Virus genome (UHGV): UHGV-0885813
Reading direction: 5' to 3' (one strand)
DNA from: a virus
DNA length: 10,114 nt
The position numbers were made by a program, and so were the translations under genes. Positions 3,307-10,114 of the stretch are shown here, one piece after another; within the stretch, counting starts at the first letter, position 1, and every line of letters starts with the position of its first letter. The notes beneath the pieces were generated by a model, which saw only the letters and a program-made list of their open reading frames with translations, did no database searches and had not been told where the DNA came from.

Positions 3307-3507
3307 ATGCAACACGAACTACAGCCTGATTCACTGGTTGATTTGAAATTCATCATGGCCGATACTGGCTTCGGTAAAACCTTCATCTACGACCGGATTA
3401 AGTCCGGCGACCTGCCAAAAGCCAAAGTTATCCACGGACGAGCAAGATGGTTATATCGTGACCATTGTGAATTCAAAAATAAGCTCTTAAGCCGCGCTAA
3501 TGGGTAA
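3307..3507 (+). CDS. torI: AlpA/Xis-family recombination directionality factor (excisionase), TorI-like
   Basis: 66 aa. Central ...MADTGFGKTFIYDRIKSGDLPKAKVIHGRARWLYRD... fits the AlpA/Vis/TorI winged-helix family. It lies immediately upstream of the attP core and the integrase, and length and sequence match my recollection of E. coli KplE1 TorI. GGAG at 3293-3296. Confidence 0.75.
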   Translation: MQHELQPDSLVDLKFIMADTGFGKTFIYDRIKSGDLPKAKVIHGRARWLYRDHCEFKNKLLSRANG

Positions 3508-3580: not shown

Positions 3581-3595
3581 CTGCAGGGGACACCA
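3581..3595. other. attP core: 15-nt identity to the 3' end of tRNA-Arg(CCU) argW (CTGCAGGGGACACCA)
   Basis: Matches the T-stem 3' half, acceptor 3' strand, discriminator and CCA of argW as I recall it. Lies between the excisionase and the integrase, as expected for an argW-integrating element. Confidence 0.6.
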
Positions 3596-3690
3596 TTTAT
3601 CAGTTCGCCCCCATCCGTACCAGTCCGCAAAATCCCCTGAATATCAAGCCTTCCGTAGATTCACGGTTCGTCATGGTTCGCGTCAGATCG

Positions 3691-3720: not shown

Positions 3721-3756
3721 GTGGATAAAATAATTTTACCCACCGGATTTTTACCC
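3712..3756 (+). repeat. GGGTAAAA / TTTTACCC inverted-repeat cluster at the int 5' end (candidate arm-type sites)
   Basis: GGGTAAAAA at 3712-3720; TTTTACCC at 3734-3741 and 3749-3756. Same 8-mer as the direct repeats at 3502-3522. Confidence 0.4.
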
Positions 3757-4914
3757 ATGCTCACCGTTAAGCAGATTGAAGCAGCAAAGCCGAAAGAAAA
3801 ACCATACCGCCTTCTCGATGGTAATGGCCTGTACCTTTATGTCCCTGTATCAGGGAAAAAGGTATGGCAGCTTCGCTACAAGATTGACGGTAAGGAGAAA
3901 ATCCTGACTGTCGGAAAATATCCGCTTATGACTTTGCAGGAAGCAAGGGATAAGGCATGGACTGCGAGGAAAGACATCTCGGTTGGCATCGATCCGGTAA
4001 AGGCGAAAAAGGCTTCGTCTAACAACAATTCCTTTAGTGCGATTTACAAGGAATGGTACGAGCACAAGAAGCAAGTCTGGTCAGTAGGCTATGCAAACGA
4101 ACTTGCCAAAATGTTTGATGACGACATTTTACCCATCATCGGCGGTCTTGAGATTCAGGATATTGAGCCGATGCAACTGTTGGAAGTAATCCGCAGATTT
4201 GAAGATCGCGGTGCAATGGAGCGAGCCAACAAAGCACGCAGAAGATGCGGCGAGGTTTTCCGTTACGCTATTGTCACCGGAAGGGCTAAATATAACCCGG
4301 CACCTGACCTTGCAGACGCCATGAAGGGATACCGCAAGAAGAACTTCCCGTTTCTTCCTGCAGACCAGATCCCGGCATTCAACAAAGCACTGGCAACATT
4401 TTCAGGAAGTATCGTATCGCTCATTGCGACCAAAGTTTTACGCTACACAGCCCTAAGAACGAAAGAGCTTCGTTCCATGCTATGGAAGAACGTCGATTTT
4501 GAAAACAGGATTATCACCATCGACGCCAGTGTGATGAAGGGACGCAAAATTCATGTGGTCCCGATGTCAGACCAGGTGGTTGAACTTCTCACTACGCTAA
4601 GCTCCATCACCAAACCAGTATCAGAGTTTGTTTTTGCCGGGCGCAACGATAAGAAGAAGCCAATCTGCGAGAACGCGGTTCTACTTGTGATCAAACAAAT
4701 CGGCTATGAGGGTCTGGAAAGCGGTCACGGATTCAGGCATGAATTCAGCACGATTATGAACGAGCACGAATGGCCTGCTGACGCTATTGAAGTGCAACTG
4801 GCACATGCCAACGGCGGATCTGTGCGTGGAATTTACAACCATGCTCAGTATCTCGATAAGCGCAGAGAAATGATGCAGTGGTGGGCGGACTGGCTTGATG
4901 AAAAGGTGGCTTAA
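3757..4914 (+). CDS. intS: P4-family tyrosine integrase, IntS-like (argW-specific)
   Basis: 385 aa from the ATG at 3757 (MLTVKQIEAAKPKEKPYRLLDGNGLYL...). Shares P4/CP4-57 integrase hallmarks (..KQIEAAKPK.., C-terminal ..MMQWWADWLD..). The ORF track's GTG at 3721 is an alternative start but falls inside the promoter/repeat region. Confidence 0.9.
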   Translation: MLTVKQIEAAKPKEKPYRLLDGNGLYLYVPVSGKKVWQLRYKIDGKEKILTVGKYPLMTLQEARDKAWTARKDISVGIDPVKAKKASSNNNSFSAIYKEWYEHKKQVWSVGYANELAKMFDDDILPIIGGLEIQDIEPMQLLEVIRRFEDRGAMERANKARRRCGEVFRYAIVTGRAKYNPAPDLADAMKGYRKKNFPFLPADQIPAFNKALATFSGSIVSLIATKVLRYTALRTKELRSMLWKNVDFENRIITIDASVMKGRKIHVVPMSDQVVELLTTLSSITKPVSEFVFAGRNDKKKPICENAVLLVIKQIGYEGLESGHGFRHEFSTIMNEHEWPADAIEVQLAHANGGSVRGIYNHAQYLDKRREMMQWWADWLDEKVA

Positions 4915-5166
4915 TGCCATCTCACATAGTCCTTACATCATTGGTAGCATGATTAATGAAATGCGCAACCATACCAGGCACTTCTACCCATTCAATGGTG
5001 GCGCCAGCCCAATTATTGCTCCACAATTAAGAACATCATCGCCTTACTATGCTTCAGCAACGCTTGCATAAAAAAAAGTAATGTCTCTATCATCTTTTAC
5101 CAGTGTGACATAATTACATCAAAACTAAATGTATATACATTACACCATAACAAGGAATGGCATTAA

Positions 5167-5194
5167 TTACATGTTTACATTAGTATGCTAAAAT
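5167..5194 (+). promoter_or_regulatory. possible promoter for the acyltransferase gene
   Basis: TTACAT at 5167-5172, 16-bp spacer, TAAAAT at 5189-5194, about 30 nt upstream of the ATG at 5226. The region is AT-rich, so hexamer matches are easy to find by chance. Confidence 0.25.
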
Positions 5195-5225
5195 GCTGTT
5201 TTTTTTAGTTTGATAGGCTGATGCA

Positions 5226-6215
5226 ATGAACAGAAATGCCGGAATGGATGCTCTTAGAATCATAAGTTGCTTTATGGTTGTTTGTATACATACATGCCTG
5301 AATTATAAATATGGTCAAGATTCTCTCAACAACCTTCTCGCATTATTTGGTCAATCTTTATTCAGAATTGGACTCCCTGTTTTTTTTATTCTTAGCGGTT
5401 ATTTCATACTTAATTCAAGAGTTGACTTTACCGCAAGTTCTTTTTTCAAAAGAATAAAGAAAATTGCCATCCCTTTTATTTTTTATAGCATAGCCCACTG
5501 GTTTATAATAAATAAAGGAATGACAGTAAGTTTTTCTGGAGTGGCGGAATATATCAATGCTTTAACAGTAAGAAATTCAATATCTATACATTTTTAGTTC
5601 GTTTACTCACTAATTGGGATATATATATTCGCACAACCAATAAATTATCTTTTAAAAGATATTTCTATTAATGGTTCATTTTTTGGATTAATCATAATAG
5701 CTTTTTTGTTTCTATATAATGGTGACCTGCCTTCTATTGGTAATGTCTTACCTGTTTCAAGCGTCGATAAGTGGACTGCTTACTTTGTTGCAGGAGGTTT
5801 TCTTGCAAGGATAAAAGACAAAATATCCATTAATCAAGCTATTATATTAACACTAATTGGATACACATCCATTGTGTTTATTTCTGTTTACAATAGCAAG
5901 AACAATCATCCAATGCCATACGACTTCAGCATTAGTATGTTTGTTGCTTGTTGTGGAGTTGTCCTGCTATTTTCAAAATTACATATCAAAAACAGCAAAT
6001 TATTAAGCAATCTTTCAGAATCTACGTACGGGGCATACCTAATACACATTTGTATTTTAAAGTTATTATCTCCATTTTACTTTACTCACATTCATAAGCC
6101 CGGCGTAATAAATTATTTTTTTACCACATTTATTTTAGCGGTGTTTGTTTTTACAGTTTCTATAACCATATCATTGATGTTGTTACCTATATTTAAAAAT
6201 CGATATTTGAAATAG
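5226..6215 (+). pseudogene. oac: Oac-like O-antigen acyltransferase (acyltransferase-3 family) interrupted by an in-frame amber codon at 5595-5597
   Basis: Track ORFs 5226-5597 and 5706-6215 are in the same frame, and everything between them is open except the TAG at 5595-5597. The joined product (about 329 aa) is a multi-pass membrane protein with N-terminal ..DALRIISCFMVVCIHT.. and FFILSGYF motifs typical of Acyl_transf_3 (Oac/OafA). The TAG falls where the family has a conserved Trp (H-F/L-W-F). Markedly AT-rich by eye compared with int. Confidence 0.75.
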
Positions 6216-6304
6216 GACCTAATTAGCAGCAATGGAATCCTGTTGTTGTATTATTCTATTACGCTTGTCATAATACCATTGTTTAAACATTGTATAGTTT
6301 AAAC

Positions 6305-6333
6305 CAAAAAATACGCCTGCTAAACAGGCGTAT
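6305..6333 (-). terminator. intrinsic terminator downstream of the tailspike; hairpin shared with the convergent oac transcript
   Basis: 9-bp stem ATACGCCTG / CAGGCGTAT with a 5-nt loop at 6311-6333. On the - strand it is followed by TTTTTT (complement of the A-run at 6305-6310). Sits 7 nt past the tailspike stop. Confidence 0.6.
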
Positions 6334-6339
6334 TGCAGG

Positions 6340-8232
6340 CTAGGTGTTAGTGATTTTCTTCCATGCAGATGCTGTAGTACCAGTTGCTTTATACCACTCA
6401 AACTGACCAGCAGTCGTGTCAAGATATTCTTCTCCAATATATCTTGGAACTACATTGTTTATTGGGTTTTGCGCCTGTTTCCTAACAAAGAAACGATCAT
6501 CCCAAAGCTTTTGTGTTTCATAGTTTAGAAATGACATTCCAGCGATGGTTAATAATGGTGATCCTGATGATTGATTTGAATTAATATACATACTAATCAC
6601 ATGCCATCCTCGTGATGCTATATGTATACGTGCCGATTTTTGCGTATCATACGATGAGTTTCTATCTATTGAAAGTGTATTATCTTTAACATTTAAGTTT
6701 AATGTTGCCGATGGTTTTGATGTGATATCACCATTAATAATTTCAACAACTCTATCATCAAGAGAATATTGTGATTGAGGAAGTCCAAAATCAAGCTCTA
6801 TAGATAAAGCTGAATTTGCCACAATAATGCTTGGGGTGAAAATAAGATCATCCTCATCAGCGTAGAAGCATATAAACACTTTATTTCCATACTGGCTTGT
6901 TTCAACAACATAACCACCAGTGTAACTTGCTAACGGCGGGCTAACCATTGATGGTTTATTTAACTGAGTTCCCCATGCCCCATCCTTTAGCTTCATAGAT
7001 GTTTCGAAAGTTCTTACATTAATATTTGTTCCTGATTTAACTTTCGTTGGGTTATTAAATTTAGAAAGTAGAAATGCAAAAACTTTTGCCGCAAGGTATT
7101 TATAACCCTCTTCACGAAAATGAACATTATCACTAAATCTTGTTGAGTCAATACCGTAAAAAACTTCTACACCGTCAAGAACTGGTATTCCGTATTGTTC
7201 GCCAATATTAAAAACAGCTTCTCTATAAGCATCAAGAAGCCTTACATTTGCACCATATTGTTTCTGTGGAGGTGGAGTTATCAAAATTACAGCAGCCCCC
7301 TTCACAAGTTCTCTCGCAATTATTTTCTTATAATAAAAAATATAGTCTGATATTGACTGGTAAGGGCTGAATCCCTGTGCAGCATCATTTGTTCCGTACA
7401 TGATAATAGTTAAATCACTATTAACATTTACATCCCAATCACCCCACCCTAATTTAGTATTATCACCTGAATAGCCTTGGTTAATAACATTAATGGATGA
7501 TGAAAATGCTTGCTGAAGATAGCCTTGCAACGCCTGAGGGTAAGTTGTTGCTGCCCTTGTTTTATTATGAACACGACCTGATGCTGTAGGAGTTGTATCT
7601 GGTGGAGTCGGTGCAACTGTAGTGTCTTCTCCATATGTCAGGGAATCACCTCGGCAAACGATGGTTATCGCGTCTGAATCACGTGCTACCTTTTCTGCAT
7701 ACTTGCTAAGATTTAGTCTTTGTAGAGCGTGTAATTGTTTCCCTAGTATTATTTGCGATCCAATATCGACAGAGTCATCTGAAAGCGCGAGGTTCATAGC
7801 TTTGTCGGCAACATCAACAGAGTTTGCAATATCTTTTGCATGCTTACCTGCAATGATAACTTCGCTACCTTCTTGCGCTAATCTTTGCTCAAATTGGTCT
7901 GGATCGTACTTCAGCACATTAGGAAAATAGAACTGCTGCACACCGTACGCATCATAAACAGCCATAGAATGGCCTTGCACAGTTACGAACTTGGCAATCT
8001 GTCCGTTATATACCGGATATCCAGCGGCGTTAATGATGATTGGTTGCGAAACAGGAACGTGAGAGCCGTCTTCGTTCTCCACATAAACCTGAATCCGGTT
8101 TTCAGGATTTACCGGGTCAGTGTCAATTTTACCGATATAAATTTTGCCATTGGCTACGGCTTTAAAAGAACGCGCCATAGTGAAGAGTTGCGAAGGCATT
8201 CCAATAACAGCATTTGGGGTGATTTCCGACAT
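6340..8232 (-). CDS. tailspike protein: P22/Sf6-type head-binding N-terminus, central SGNH/GDSL hydrolase domain, uncharacterised C-terminal domain
   Basis: From the internal ATG (plus-strand 8230-8232, preceded by AGGA): [69 protein letters not shown] closely matches the P22 gp9 / Sf6 head-binding domain. Downstream are all four SGNH blocks in order: GDSLTYG (Ser codon at 7642-7644), [18 protein letters not shown] (His codon at 7120-7122). 630 aa from this start. Confidence 0.85.
7066..7683 (-). other. SGNH/GDSL esterase domain within the tailspike
   Basis: Blocks I, II, III and V (GDSL, G, GxND, DxxH) span roughly residues 215-420 of the track ORF. Confidence 0.7.
7876..8232 (-). other. 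P22-like tailspike head-binding (particle-binding) domain
   Basis: About 115 aa with high similarity to the P22 gp9 N-terminus as recalled ([22 protein letters not shown]...[13 protein letters not shown]...NVLKYDPDQ). Confidence 0.75.
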
Positions 8233-8423
8233 GTGCACAATCCTATTAGATTGATTCGATAAAGAAGGGAAAGGAGTTAATGCTACAAATGACGCTATTG
8301 ATTTGAAAAATGATCTTCTGTTCATTTAAAACACACTTTAAGCATGACATTTGGTAGTAATGTAAGAAAAAATTACAATCAACTCCATAGCTATTTAATT
8401 TTTAACAGTAATTCACATCTGCA

Positions 8424-10114
8424 TTACCCTGACAACGCATCAGACTTAACGCCTTGGGTCAGCGCGTTAATTGCCTTTTGTGCCTGACGCAAGGCTTTCT
8501 CAAACGCTGTTGATCCGCGTGGGGTATTTGCCATCCGGAGCATTGCATTTCTGAATGGCTCGCTCTCATAGGCTCGAGTAAGAAGTCCGTAGCTTACTGC
8601 TGCGCCAGTTGTCGCCGGGTTCATTGCTGTCCCATATCCGATAATGAACGGGATGGTTTGCTGCCCTGTTGGTGTTGTTACTGCCGCTTTTGCAGCCTGC
8701 TGCGTGGATTGCAGGTAGTTTTTCAATCCTTTCAGATAAGCGGCTTCCTGACCTTTAAATGTGATGCCAGTCTGATTTTGCAGAATGTTAAGCTGTCGAA
8801 GGAACTGGTCAGGGGATCCGCCAGATTTCTCCATCGCCTTTCCAATGATGCCATTGCGCATTTGCGCCCTGCCAACACGACCAACTGAGTTATACAGAGT
8901 CTTAATTTCCGATTTGTTCTTGCTGAATAGCATGTTGTTGACAACTTCCGGCGTCAGGTCGCCTTTCATGAGAACATTCTTCAGCCTGGTATTCTTTAGT
9001 TTCGCCGCTTCGTCAGCGTAGACGGCATTGGCCTGCTGATATTTACGAAGAGTATCATTGCCAAGATTCTGACCAATGGCACCATTGATATCGTCGGTCA
9101 TCGCCTTGTAAACTCGCTGAATGGCAGCATCGGAACGGTTTGGTAACACTGGTCGCTCACCCTTCACGTCCATTCTGAACTGGCTGCGCAGATCGCTTAA
9201 TTGCTTCAAATCCAGATTTACCGGACCATCAGGACCAGCATTGCGAACAAGCTCATCACGATAGGACTGAAGTTTTGAAATAGTCTCGTTATCAGCAACC
9301 TTACCAAGCTTCTGCAGGTTAGATATTTCTGTATCAATCTGCTGAATTGCTCCAGCAGGCTGAATGTTTACTCCGGCCATAGCATTCTGAACCTGCTCCA
9401 GTCGATTACCGGCGGCACGACGAATTCCTGATGTTTTCGCTTTAAGGCTGTCAATAACAACCGCTGGATCATACTCACCGAATTTATCGGCAAATCTCTG
9501 CACCAACTGGCTTCTCGCTTCCTGTTGCGTTGCTCTCATTCCGCTTGTGCCAGCCAGAGGGATATTTTCTGCTGTAGTCTGCGCCATTTTTCCGACGCGG
9601 GAAGTAGGCGGTAACAGGTCTGTGGTGTGCAGAGGAACTCCTTCACGCTCTGCAAATCTGATAGCCTGCTGCGCTTCTGGTGCAATAGCACCACGAACGC
9701 CACGATAAGCAGCACCTAATCCACGTCCGGCAGCGTTAATAGCGCCGCCAGCCAGAACGCCAATGCCTAAATCGGTAGCGAGTGCTTCCGCATCATCTTT
9801 CGCACTATTTGCAGCAAGTGACCCGACTGCGTTTTCAGCGAGAAGGCGAGTTGCACCCTGAGCGATTCTACCAGCGAGTGTTGGTGCCTGTGTTGCCGCT
9901 CTCTCAATGCCAGCAGGAGTGAGGTAAGGCAATGCCTCAGCAAATACCCTGCCCTCTGTAGTTTGTGGAGTCAGCGCGCCTTGCTGAAGGCCAAAGTCCT
10001 GCTCTAATCCATGCGTTGTTACTCGTGGCGTTGGGTGATATGTCCCATCGCCAATTCCGAGTTTACCGCCAGCCCAAGCCGCCGCGCTTGTTACAGCATC
10101 GGCAACTGATGCAG
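8424..10114 (-). CDS. DNA-ejection/transfer protein, gp16-like; 5' end lies beyond the window
   Basis: I translated 9933-10114 on the - strand and found the frame open to the window edge with no start codon, so the 502-aa track ORF is a truncation. Gly/Ala/Gln-rich composition and position immediately upstream of the tailspike fit P22 gp16 / Sf6 ejection protein; the assignment is by synteny and composition, not a verified alignment. Confidence 0.65.
   Translation of the reverse strand, partial: ASVADAVTSAAAWAGGKLGIGDGTYHPTPRVTTHGLEQDFGLQQGALTPQTTEGRVFAEALPYLTPAGIERAATQAPTLAGRIAQGATRLLAENAVGSLAANSAKDDAEALATDLGIGVLAGGAINAAGRGLGAAYRGVRGAIAPEAQQAIRFAEREGVPLHTTDLLPPTSRVGKMAQTTAENIPLAGTSGMRATQQEARSQLVQRFADKFGEYDPAVVIDSLKAKTSGIRRAAGNRLEQVQNAMAGVNIQPAGAIQQIDTEISNLQKLGKVADNETISKLQSYRDELVRNAGPDGPVNLDLKQLSDLRSQFRMDVKGERPVLPNRSDAAIQRVYKAMTDDINGAIGQNLGNDTLRKYQQANAVYADEAAKLKNTRLKNVLMKGDLTPEVVNNMLFSKNKSEIKTLYNSVGRVGRAQMRNGIIGKAMEKSGGSPDQFLRQLNILQNQTGITFKGQEAAYLKGLKNYLQSTQQAAKAAVTTPTGQQTIPFIIGYGTAMNPATTGAAVSYGLLTRAYESEPFRNAMLRMANTPRGSTAFEKALRQAQKAINALTQGVKSDALSG

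Follow-up and report, generated by a model that had tools for sequence, protein, structure and literature searches.

The gene for an Oac-like O-acyltransferase of the AT3 family (oac, positions 5226-6215, plus strand) and the gene for an esterase tailspike (6340-8232, minus strand, 630 amino acids) stand convergently in UHGV virus genome UHGV-0885813, of which we analysed a stretch of 10,114 nucleotides (the window; L-, P- and H-numbers below are our labels for the loci and proteins compared). The two genes are linked beyond mere adjacency: the oac promoter-like site, oac, two hairpins and the spike's receptor-binding part lie together in an unbroken 2.65-kb cassette of foreign base composition, which is found also in an unrelated Enterobacter phage type. 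The window's own copy of oac is a pseudogene, interrupted by a single amber codon. We tentatively favour, at a probability of roughly 40%, the reading that the intact writer would modify the same polysaccharide as the spike at another position than the spike's, with classical superinfection exclusion as the result.

A contiguous low-GC cassette

The GC content rises from 30% in oac through 37% and 44% in the receptor-binding and head-binding parts of the spike gene to 48% in the flanks. Comparison by blastn with a prophage of Enterobacter cloacae (L009/L010) gave a single contiguous block, window 5169-7818, of 72% nucleotide identity, spanning the oac promoter, oac, both hairpins and spike residues ~139-630. 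The block edges are tight, one lying 57 bp upstream of oac and the other exactly at the junction with the head-binding domain. Among the E. coli copies, identity is 99.6-100% inside the block and 97-98% in the flanks.

The Enterobacter prophages (L009/L010, and also L022) carry the whole cassette in the same convergent arrangement and with the hairpin, at amino acid identities of 75% for oac and 78% for the receptor-binding part. They differ from the window in the N-terminal adaptor of the spike, which is PF18668 (Tail_spike_N), in their neighbours, which are siphovirus-type tail genes, and in having no T8 tract in oac.

Parts of the cassette also occur singly. The receptor-binding part is present with the hairpin only, without oac, in Enterobacter L011, L012 and L027, the hairpin being kept as the edge of the block in L011 and L027. 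A 97% identical receptor-binding part sits on a PF18668 adaptor in the 750-amino-acid spike of an unrelated E. coli prophage type (L013-L020, L025), where it precedes holin and endolysin genes and has no adjacent acyltransferase; some database copies of this spike are mis-named endo-alpha-sialidase. A 74% homologue of oac lies in a decayed prophage remnant of Enterobacter mori that has no spike (L003-L005; 10001-10990 and 2507-3538). This remnant occupies the same chromosomal place in several genomes and holds a second AT3 gene 6.5 kb from the oac homologue.

The oac slot of L024, which lies between the window's type of P22-like spike (98%) and integrase (96%), is taken by a different acetyltransferase, a 178-amino-acid WcaF/WbbJ-like hexapeptide enzyme (L024:4972-5508) whose gene is co-directional with the spike. 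We considered this gene as evidence of esterase-specific coupling and rejected it, since its 79% Enterobacter homologue (L164-L168) follows an 850-amino-acid spike that is not an esterase; the L024 enzyme is thus taken as a general mobile conversion gene.

These comparisons bear on the view that oac and the spike are neighbours by architecture only, the slot between integrase and tailspike of Sf6-like genomes being a landing site of conversion morons. The enzymes would then have unrelated substrates, or oac would be a decaying passenger, and the Enterobacter block would record a single recombination that chanced to take in both genes. Such a history agrees with a gene order that is that of Sf6, with esterase receptor-binding parts that lack oac in several contexts, with oac homologues that lack a spike in E. 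mori, and with the commonness of null alleles described below. It accounts poorly for block boundaries this tight, for the even composition of the block and its higher conservation relative to the flanks, and for the presence of two non-homologous acetyltransferases in the slot beside the same spike. We consider it unlikely, and return to it with the survey data.

The earlier note on this DNA had the two genes sharing one hairpin terminator at 6305-6333. The hairpin is real, but it lies at 6310-6334; it is GC-rich, with a stem of 10-11 bp and a free energy of -16 to -19 kcal/mol, and is followed by T6. Because the T-run follows on the minus strand only, we assign it as the intrinsic terminator of the spike transcript, and the note's shared terminator is only partly right. 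The acyltransferase gene has a weaker hairpin of its own on the plus strand at 6226-6249, right after its stop codon, which may be the oac terminator. The promoter-like site upstream (5166-5194, plus strand) reads ATTACA-17-TAAAAT with an extended TG, is identified by consensus match only and coincides with the left edge (5169) of the block shared with Enterobacter. A second run of about eight T (5197-5206) lies between its -10 element and the oac start codon.

A DNA search of 50,697 phage records and 5,426 complete E. coli genomes gave no match for the oac/spike region beyond the head-binding domain.

Two enzymes and the null alleles of oac

The identities proposed in the earlier note from domain content, an SGNH-esterase tailspike and an AT3 acyltransferase, are both borne out. 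The spike matches the Pfam domains Head_binding (PF09008; 213.8 bits) and Lipase_GDSL_2 (69.5 bits against a cut-off of 32.9). The first is the P22-type particle-attachment domain (7819-8232, minus strand), which has PDB matches to the Sf6 and P22 tailspikes; the second belongs to the receptor-binding part (6340-7818, minus strand, residues ~139-630), which consists of an SGNH acetyl-esterase domain and a C-terminal beta-sandwich domain. The four SGNH blocks are present (GDSLTYG, NQGYSGD, YGTNDA and DNVHF), as are all catalytic residues: S197, G256, N282, D368 and H371 are invariant in 30 spike homologues. The head-binding domain, together with the neighbours in the integrated relatives L001 and L002 (gp16, gp20, gp7, gp26 and others), makes this a P22-like tailspike.

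An AlphaFold model of spike residues 140-630 (predicted local distance difference test score, 85) shows the SGNH domain and the beta-sandwich domain. The best Foldseek matches of this model are the receptor-binding proteins of Shigella phages, SFP21A Gp09, B2 Gp48 and Moo19 Gp82 (9lna, 9d84 and 9d81), followed by a two-domain acetyl-mannan esterase (6hfz), gp63.1 of phage G7C (4qnl) and many GDSL esterases. Against G7C gp63.1 the Foldseek E-value is 1.6e-12 and the query-normalised TM-score 0.51. In adsorption, the spike would remove acetyl groups from a surface polysaccharide, most probably O-antigen.

The open reading frame (ORF) of the spike can be read as 661 amino acids from an ATG at 8325. 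We rejected this start as an over-extension, because all homologues have 630 amino acids and start at 8232. The in-frame extension (8233-8325, minus strand) resembles a twin-arginine signal peptide; given where the homologues start, it is probably non-coding.

The oac frame has 329 codons and a lone in-frame TAG (5595-5597), which replaces the TGG of Trp124. The read-through product matches Pfam Acyl_transf_3 (PF01757) with an E-value of 2.7e-37 and 129 bits over positions 1-325 of 326, and has the R/K-X10-H motif of the first AT3 helix as R11-X10-H22, which is invariant. Trp124 sits in an invariant HFWFVY motif, tryptophan being kept in eight homologues, and the codon is TGG in L001, L002 and the Enterobacter homologue. 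No tRNA gene, and hence no suppressor tRNA, was found in the window. Thus the window's oac is a member of the AT3 family but a pseudogene, while intact 329-amino-acid alleles of 99-100% identity (P0001 and others), with TGG at codon 124, are known in E. coli. It aligns with Sf6 Oac at ~30% identity over the first 128 residues only, matched no NCBIfam equivalog and had no solved-structure relative in our searches. The intact enzyme would acetylate a surface polymer in lysogens, probably the one on which the spike would act.

Recurrent inactivation of oac, for which the earlier note had suggested a survey, was indeed found. The amber allele is present in one further contig, from ENA, that is 100% identical to window 4855-8878 and probably comes from the same strain; the exact DNA around the amber codon had no match in IMG/VR or the JGI metagenomes. 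Intact forms of 329 or 323 amino acids occur beside the same spike on at least 60 E. coli contigs (90%-identity protein cluster). Three members of that cluster have out-of-frame N-termini, and these trace to a homopolymer of eight T (T8; 5379-5386, plus strand) in oac codons 52-54. Changing T8 to T9 in silico gives P0143 and P0148 exactly, and changing it to T7 gives P0145 exactly.

The T7 and T9 alleles stand beside one and the same spike variant, as judged by adjacent accession numbers, so slippage appears to have gone both ways within one lineage. Enterobacter homologues have T5 or T6 at this site (T6 in the L009/L010 type); by this comparison the T8 tract is a feature of the E. coli lineage, created by what reads as a synonymous change. 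Coding homopolymers with ON and OFF length variants are the mark of slipped-strand switching, and the T7 and T9 variants suggest such switching of oac, in a tract that is short (8 T) and with alleles rebuilt in silico from database proteins. Homopolymer length is error-prone in some sequencing technologies, yet P0143 came out of two independent assemblies, one from NCBI and one from Logan. Null alleles make up ~10% and are of three independent kinds: amber, T7 and T9.

Two further candidates were dropped. A frameshift in L022:1356-2341 is in another T-run, comes from an old metagenome assembly and may be a sequencing error, and P0147 (174 amino acids) is merely cut by a contig end. Among other AT3 genes beside spikes, L188:7736-8461 is 5'-truncated relative to L189:7736-8809, and L080:8320-9341 is split.

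Precedents, frequency and possible function of the pairing

The earlier note was not aware of a characterised coupling of writer and eraser in such a module. The arrangement is not new, its layout being that of Sf6, and the pairing of activities has been proposed before. Shigella phage Sf6 has attP, int, oac promoter, oac, terminator and convergent tailspike gene 14 (gp14) in the same orientations, a P22-type head-binding domain and an AT3-only Oac of ~330 amino acids. It differs from the window in that its spike is an endorhamnosidase beta-helix and its oac is intact. The window is of this Sf6 type, with attP beside int and with oac, under its own promoter-like site, between int and a convergent spike. 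Because Sf6 has the same gene order, the adjacency of oac and spike would by itself be ordinary.

Salmonella phage g341c (c341; NC_013059) is closer in content. It is a P22-like temperate phage whose spike has Head_binding and Lipase_GDSL_2 domains, the esterase domains aligning with the window's, and beyond the spike come a terminator that is annotated for both strands, an O-antigen acetylase gene facing the spike, the gtrA-like gene and int. Unlike the window it has an intact 640-amino-acid AT3-SGNH writer (gp15) and the gtrA-like gene; the C-terminal part of its spike is unrelated, and its host is Salmonella Anatum. Deacetylation of O-antigen by baseplate parts of c341 has been shown (Iwashita and Kanegasaki 1976, as cited in PMC5380687 and PMC7556043). 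The SGNH domain of gp15 is ~80% identical to that of OafB (PDB 6SE1), a rhamnose O-2/O-3 acetylase that confers protection from a tailspike phage (PMC9558356), while the galactose 6-O-acetyl group of group E1 Salmonella is written by a chromosomal AT3 enzyme, WbaK (PMC9558356). With an OafB-like rhamnose writer on one side and Gal-6-OAc from WbaK on the other, the g341c writer and eraser most likely act at different positions of the same O-antigen.

The E. coli phage G7C offers a functional parallel for the spike. Its gp63.1 (4QNL) is an SGNH esterase receptor-binding protein of matching fold that deacetylates O-antigen without cleaving it; deacetylation is essential for infection, and G7C-resistant hosts are acetylation-deficient mutants (PMC10743462). 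Unlike the window's phage, G7C is virulent, N4-like and devoid of a conversion gene; the two receptor-binding proteins have different attachment domains and ~14% sequence identity. For the temperate Serratia phage vB_SspM_BZS1, the authors speculated that a deacetylase tail fibre serves entry and an Oac-like acetylase serves conversion (PMC7556043). There, as in the window, an Oac-like AT3 gene is oriented oppositely to an acetyl-esterase gene within the tail-gene region; BZS1 is a myovirus, its esterase is SASA (PF03629) and not GDSL_2, two genes separate it from the AT3 gene, and the pairing is speculative there too. A study of Klebsiella prophages (2026) reports abundant SGNH receptor-binding proteins and prophage acetyltransferases and draws no link between them (PMC13123978).

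We measured how often such genes adjoin in two surveys. Since phmmer with the window's Oac as query misses other AT3 clades, acyltransferases were called by Pfam scans. The first took 80 P22-like spike loci from IMG/VR, which fall into 56 spike types, 49 of them with enough downstream sequence to judge; one SGNH spike cluster was not traceable to a locus. Of the downstream-gene clusters, 10 encode an AT3 acyltransferase and three a hexapeptide-repeat acetyltransferase right after the spike, and all but the L024 gene adjoin spikes that are not esterases (beta-helix, endosialidase-like or unassigned). This sets the base rate: a neighbouring AT3 or hexapeptide acetyltransferase accompanies 12 of the 46 evaluable non-esterase P22-like spike types (~26%).

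The second survey started from the SGNH domain of P22-like esterase spikes and yielded 32 spike families, of which 24 could be judged. An O-acyltransferase adjoins the spike in 10 of these 24 SGNH families, convergently in nine of the ten. Nine have AT3 or AT3-SGNH writers (the g341c group, L180, L184, L187, L188/189, L190, L195, L198 and L202), and in the remaining one (L213:7944-10548) a third kind of writer, an MBOAT and AlgX-like pair as in alginate-type O-acetylation systems, is convergent with the spike. Most identities among the AT3 proteins fall at 22-40%, and we therefore count the pairings as independent. In L198 a free-standing GDSL/SGNH ORF of 227 amino acids (7732-8415) lies between the SGNH spike and the AT3-SGNH acetylase.

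Adding the window's own family brings the count to 11 of 25 (44%), compared with 26% for the non-esterase spikes (one-sided Fisher p=0.10). If spikes that precede lysis or structural genes are set aside, it becomes 11/17 versus 12/46 (p=0.006), a restriction chosen post hoc. The co-occurrence that the earlier note proposed to survey thus does recur, while its enrichment is marginal and not robustly significant. Counter-examples without a neighbouring acetyltransferase are the SGNH/SASA spikes L039 (G7C-like), H112 and H113 (both SASA, from two complete E. coli genomes) and L176 (P0065, with a gtr glucosylation set). Among 54 loci of distant oac homologues in species-representative genomes, none has a nearby SGNH spike, a set that is uninformative for the pairing. 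Judged from these loci and the literature, the combination of esterase spike and acyltransferase is widespread and little discussed, and the window itself adds one more ordinary Sf6/g341c-type module, with a dead conversion gene.

For the architecture-only view these figures cut both ways. The base rate among non-esterase spikes and the esterase spikes that lack an acetyltransferase are what a general landing site would give, and recurrence of the pairing in 11 independent SGNH-spike families is harder to place there.

Under the reading we favour, the module would serve adsorption and lysogenic conversion in an argW-integrating, P22/Sf6-like temperate E. coli phage. The virion spike, anchored by its P22-type head-binding domain, would recognise an O-acetylated surface polysaccharide, most probably O-antigen, through the SGNH module, which would strip acetyl groups while the particle works its way down to the membrane, as in c341 and G7C. 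In the lysogen, oac would be expressed from its own promoter and would O-acetylate the same polysaccharide at a position that the spike does not hydrolyse. The altered receptor would then exclude phages with this receptor-binding module, following the logic of Sf6 and OafB, and the promoter, oac, terminator and esterase receptor-binding part would travel together as the low-GC block.

Several points weigh against this reading. The substrates of both enzymes are putative, and for the host O-type a lone database label (O179/8:H45) and a review of E. coli O-antigens gave nothing usable. A different acetylated glycan, for instance enterobacterial common antigen or capsule, could instead be the receptor. 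The esterase receptor-binding part stands without an adjacent acyltransferase in three contexts (L011/L012/L027, L013-L020 and L025). Exclusion by any receptor modification predicts no excess of acetyltransferases in particular, whereas the data lean to an excess in the post hoc comparison. Finally, null alleles at the observed frequency argue against constant selection for exclusion.

A rival explanation, raised as a hypothesis in the earlier note, puts both enzymes on one mark: Oac would add exactly the O-acetyl group on which the esterase spike depends as receptor and which it then strips. The spike would have evolved or been recruited to infect oac-converted hosts, recombination with a resident prophage would have joined the two genes, and the OFF states of oac (amber, T7, T9) would hide the lysogen from heteroimmune phages with the same receptor-binding part. 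A parallel is phage epsilon34, which is said to infect only epsilon15-converted cells. Heteroimmune predators of the same receptor do exist, since the 750-amino-acid spike of the unrelated E. coli prophages has a receptor-binding part 97% identical to the window's. The recurrence of diverse acyltransferases beside SGNH spikes, the MBOAT and AlgX-like pair included, speaks for a shared mark, as do the co-inheritance of the cassette across two phage types and the three independent nulls, with two-way slips at a tract limited to the E. coli lineage. The acetylation deficiency of G7C-resistant hosts (PMC10743462) points the same way.

What we know of conversion elsewhere is less favourable to a shared mark. 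In g341c, the OafB-like rhamnose writer and the host's WbaK-dependent Gal-6-OAc concern different positions. Two described conversion systems, Sf6 Oac and OafB against BTP1, block phage and do not create its receptor. Conversion by P22 gtr, epsilon15 and phiV10 likewise blocks phage rather than making a receptor. The enrichment, moreover, stays at p=0.10 unless restricted post hoc, and the hexapeptide acetyltransferase that replaces oac in L024 adjoins a non-esterase spike in Enterobacter. We regard a shared mark as rather unlikely, placing it below separate positions and above architecture alone.

Also unlikely is the further-reaching reading of a mobile write-and-erase cassette, in which Oac would install the exact mark that the spike uses and then destroys, T8 slippage and the nulls would toggle the visibility of the lysogen to phages with this module, and esterase-spike phages would be specialists on hosts converted by prophage acetyltransferases.

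Surface-polysaccharide O-acetylation decides serotype, vaccine epitopes and phage host range. Were there a functional tie between writer and spike, whether by exclusion or through the same mark, the host range of esterase phages would depend on prophage content and on the ON or OFF state of conversion genes, and not only on the O-antigen or K locus; this would bear on phage-therapy matching and on genotype-based serotyping. The cassette makes a convenient model: it is compact, both intact and null alleles of oac occur naturally, and a second acetyltransferase is found in its slot.

Other features of the window

The window covers the right-hand end of a temperate phage genome of the P22/Sf6 kind. 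At its far end, beyond the spike, lies the gene for a gp16-type DNA-transfer (ejection) protein (8424-10114, minus strand), which runs off the window. A second nonsense mutation, suspected in this gene from the ORF list, was ruled out: the frame is open to the window end, and the gene is intact within it.

The integrated relatives L001 and L002 lie beside yfdC, and their homology to the window starts exactly at 3581, which in L001 is the 3' end of the argW tRNA gene. The attP core (3581-3597, plus strand) is identical to the 3' end of argW, tRNA-Arg(CCT). Because phage DNA, rather than chromosome, precedes 3581, the window represents an unintegrated form of the phage, circular or from virions. 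Since this unintegrated DNA carries a dead writer (Trp124 to amber), conversion appears to be dispensable for this copy.

The left part of the window, before attP, holds small early-region ORFs, with an xis-like ORF (3307-3507) just upstream of the attP core. On the other side of the core follows an IntS-like tyrosine integrase gene (3721-4914, plus strand; Pfam Phage_integrase, Arm-DNA-bind_3 and Phage_int_M), and an AT-rich spacer separates it from the acyltransferase frame.

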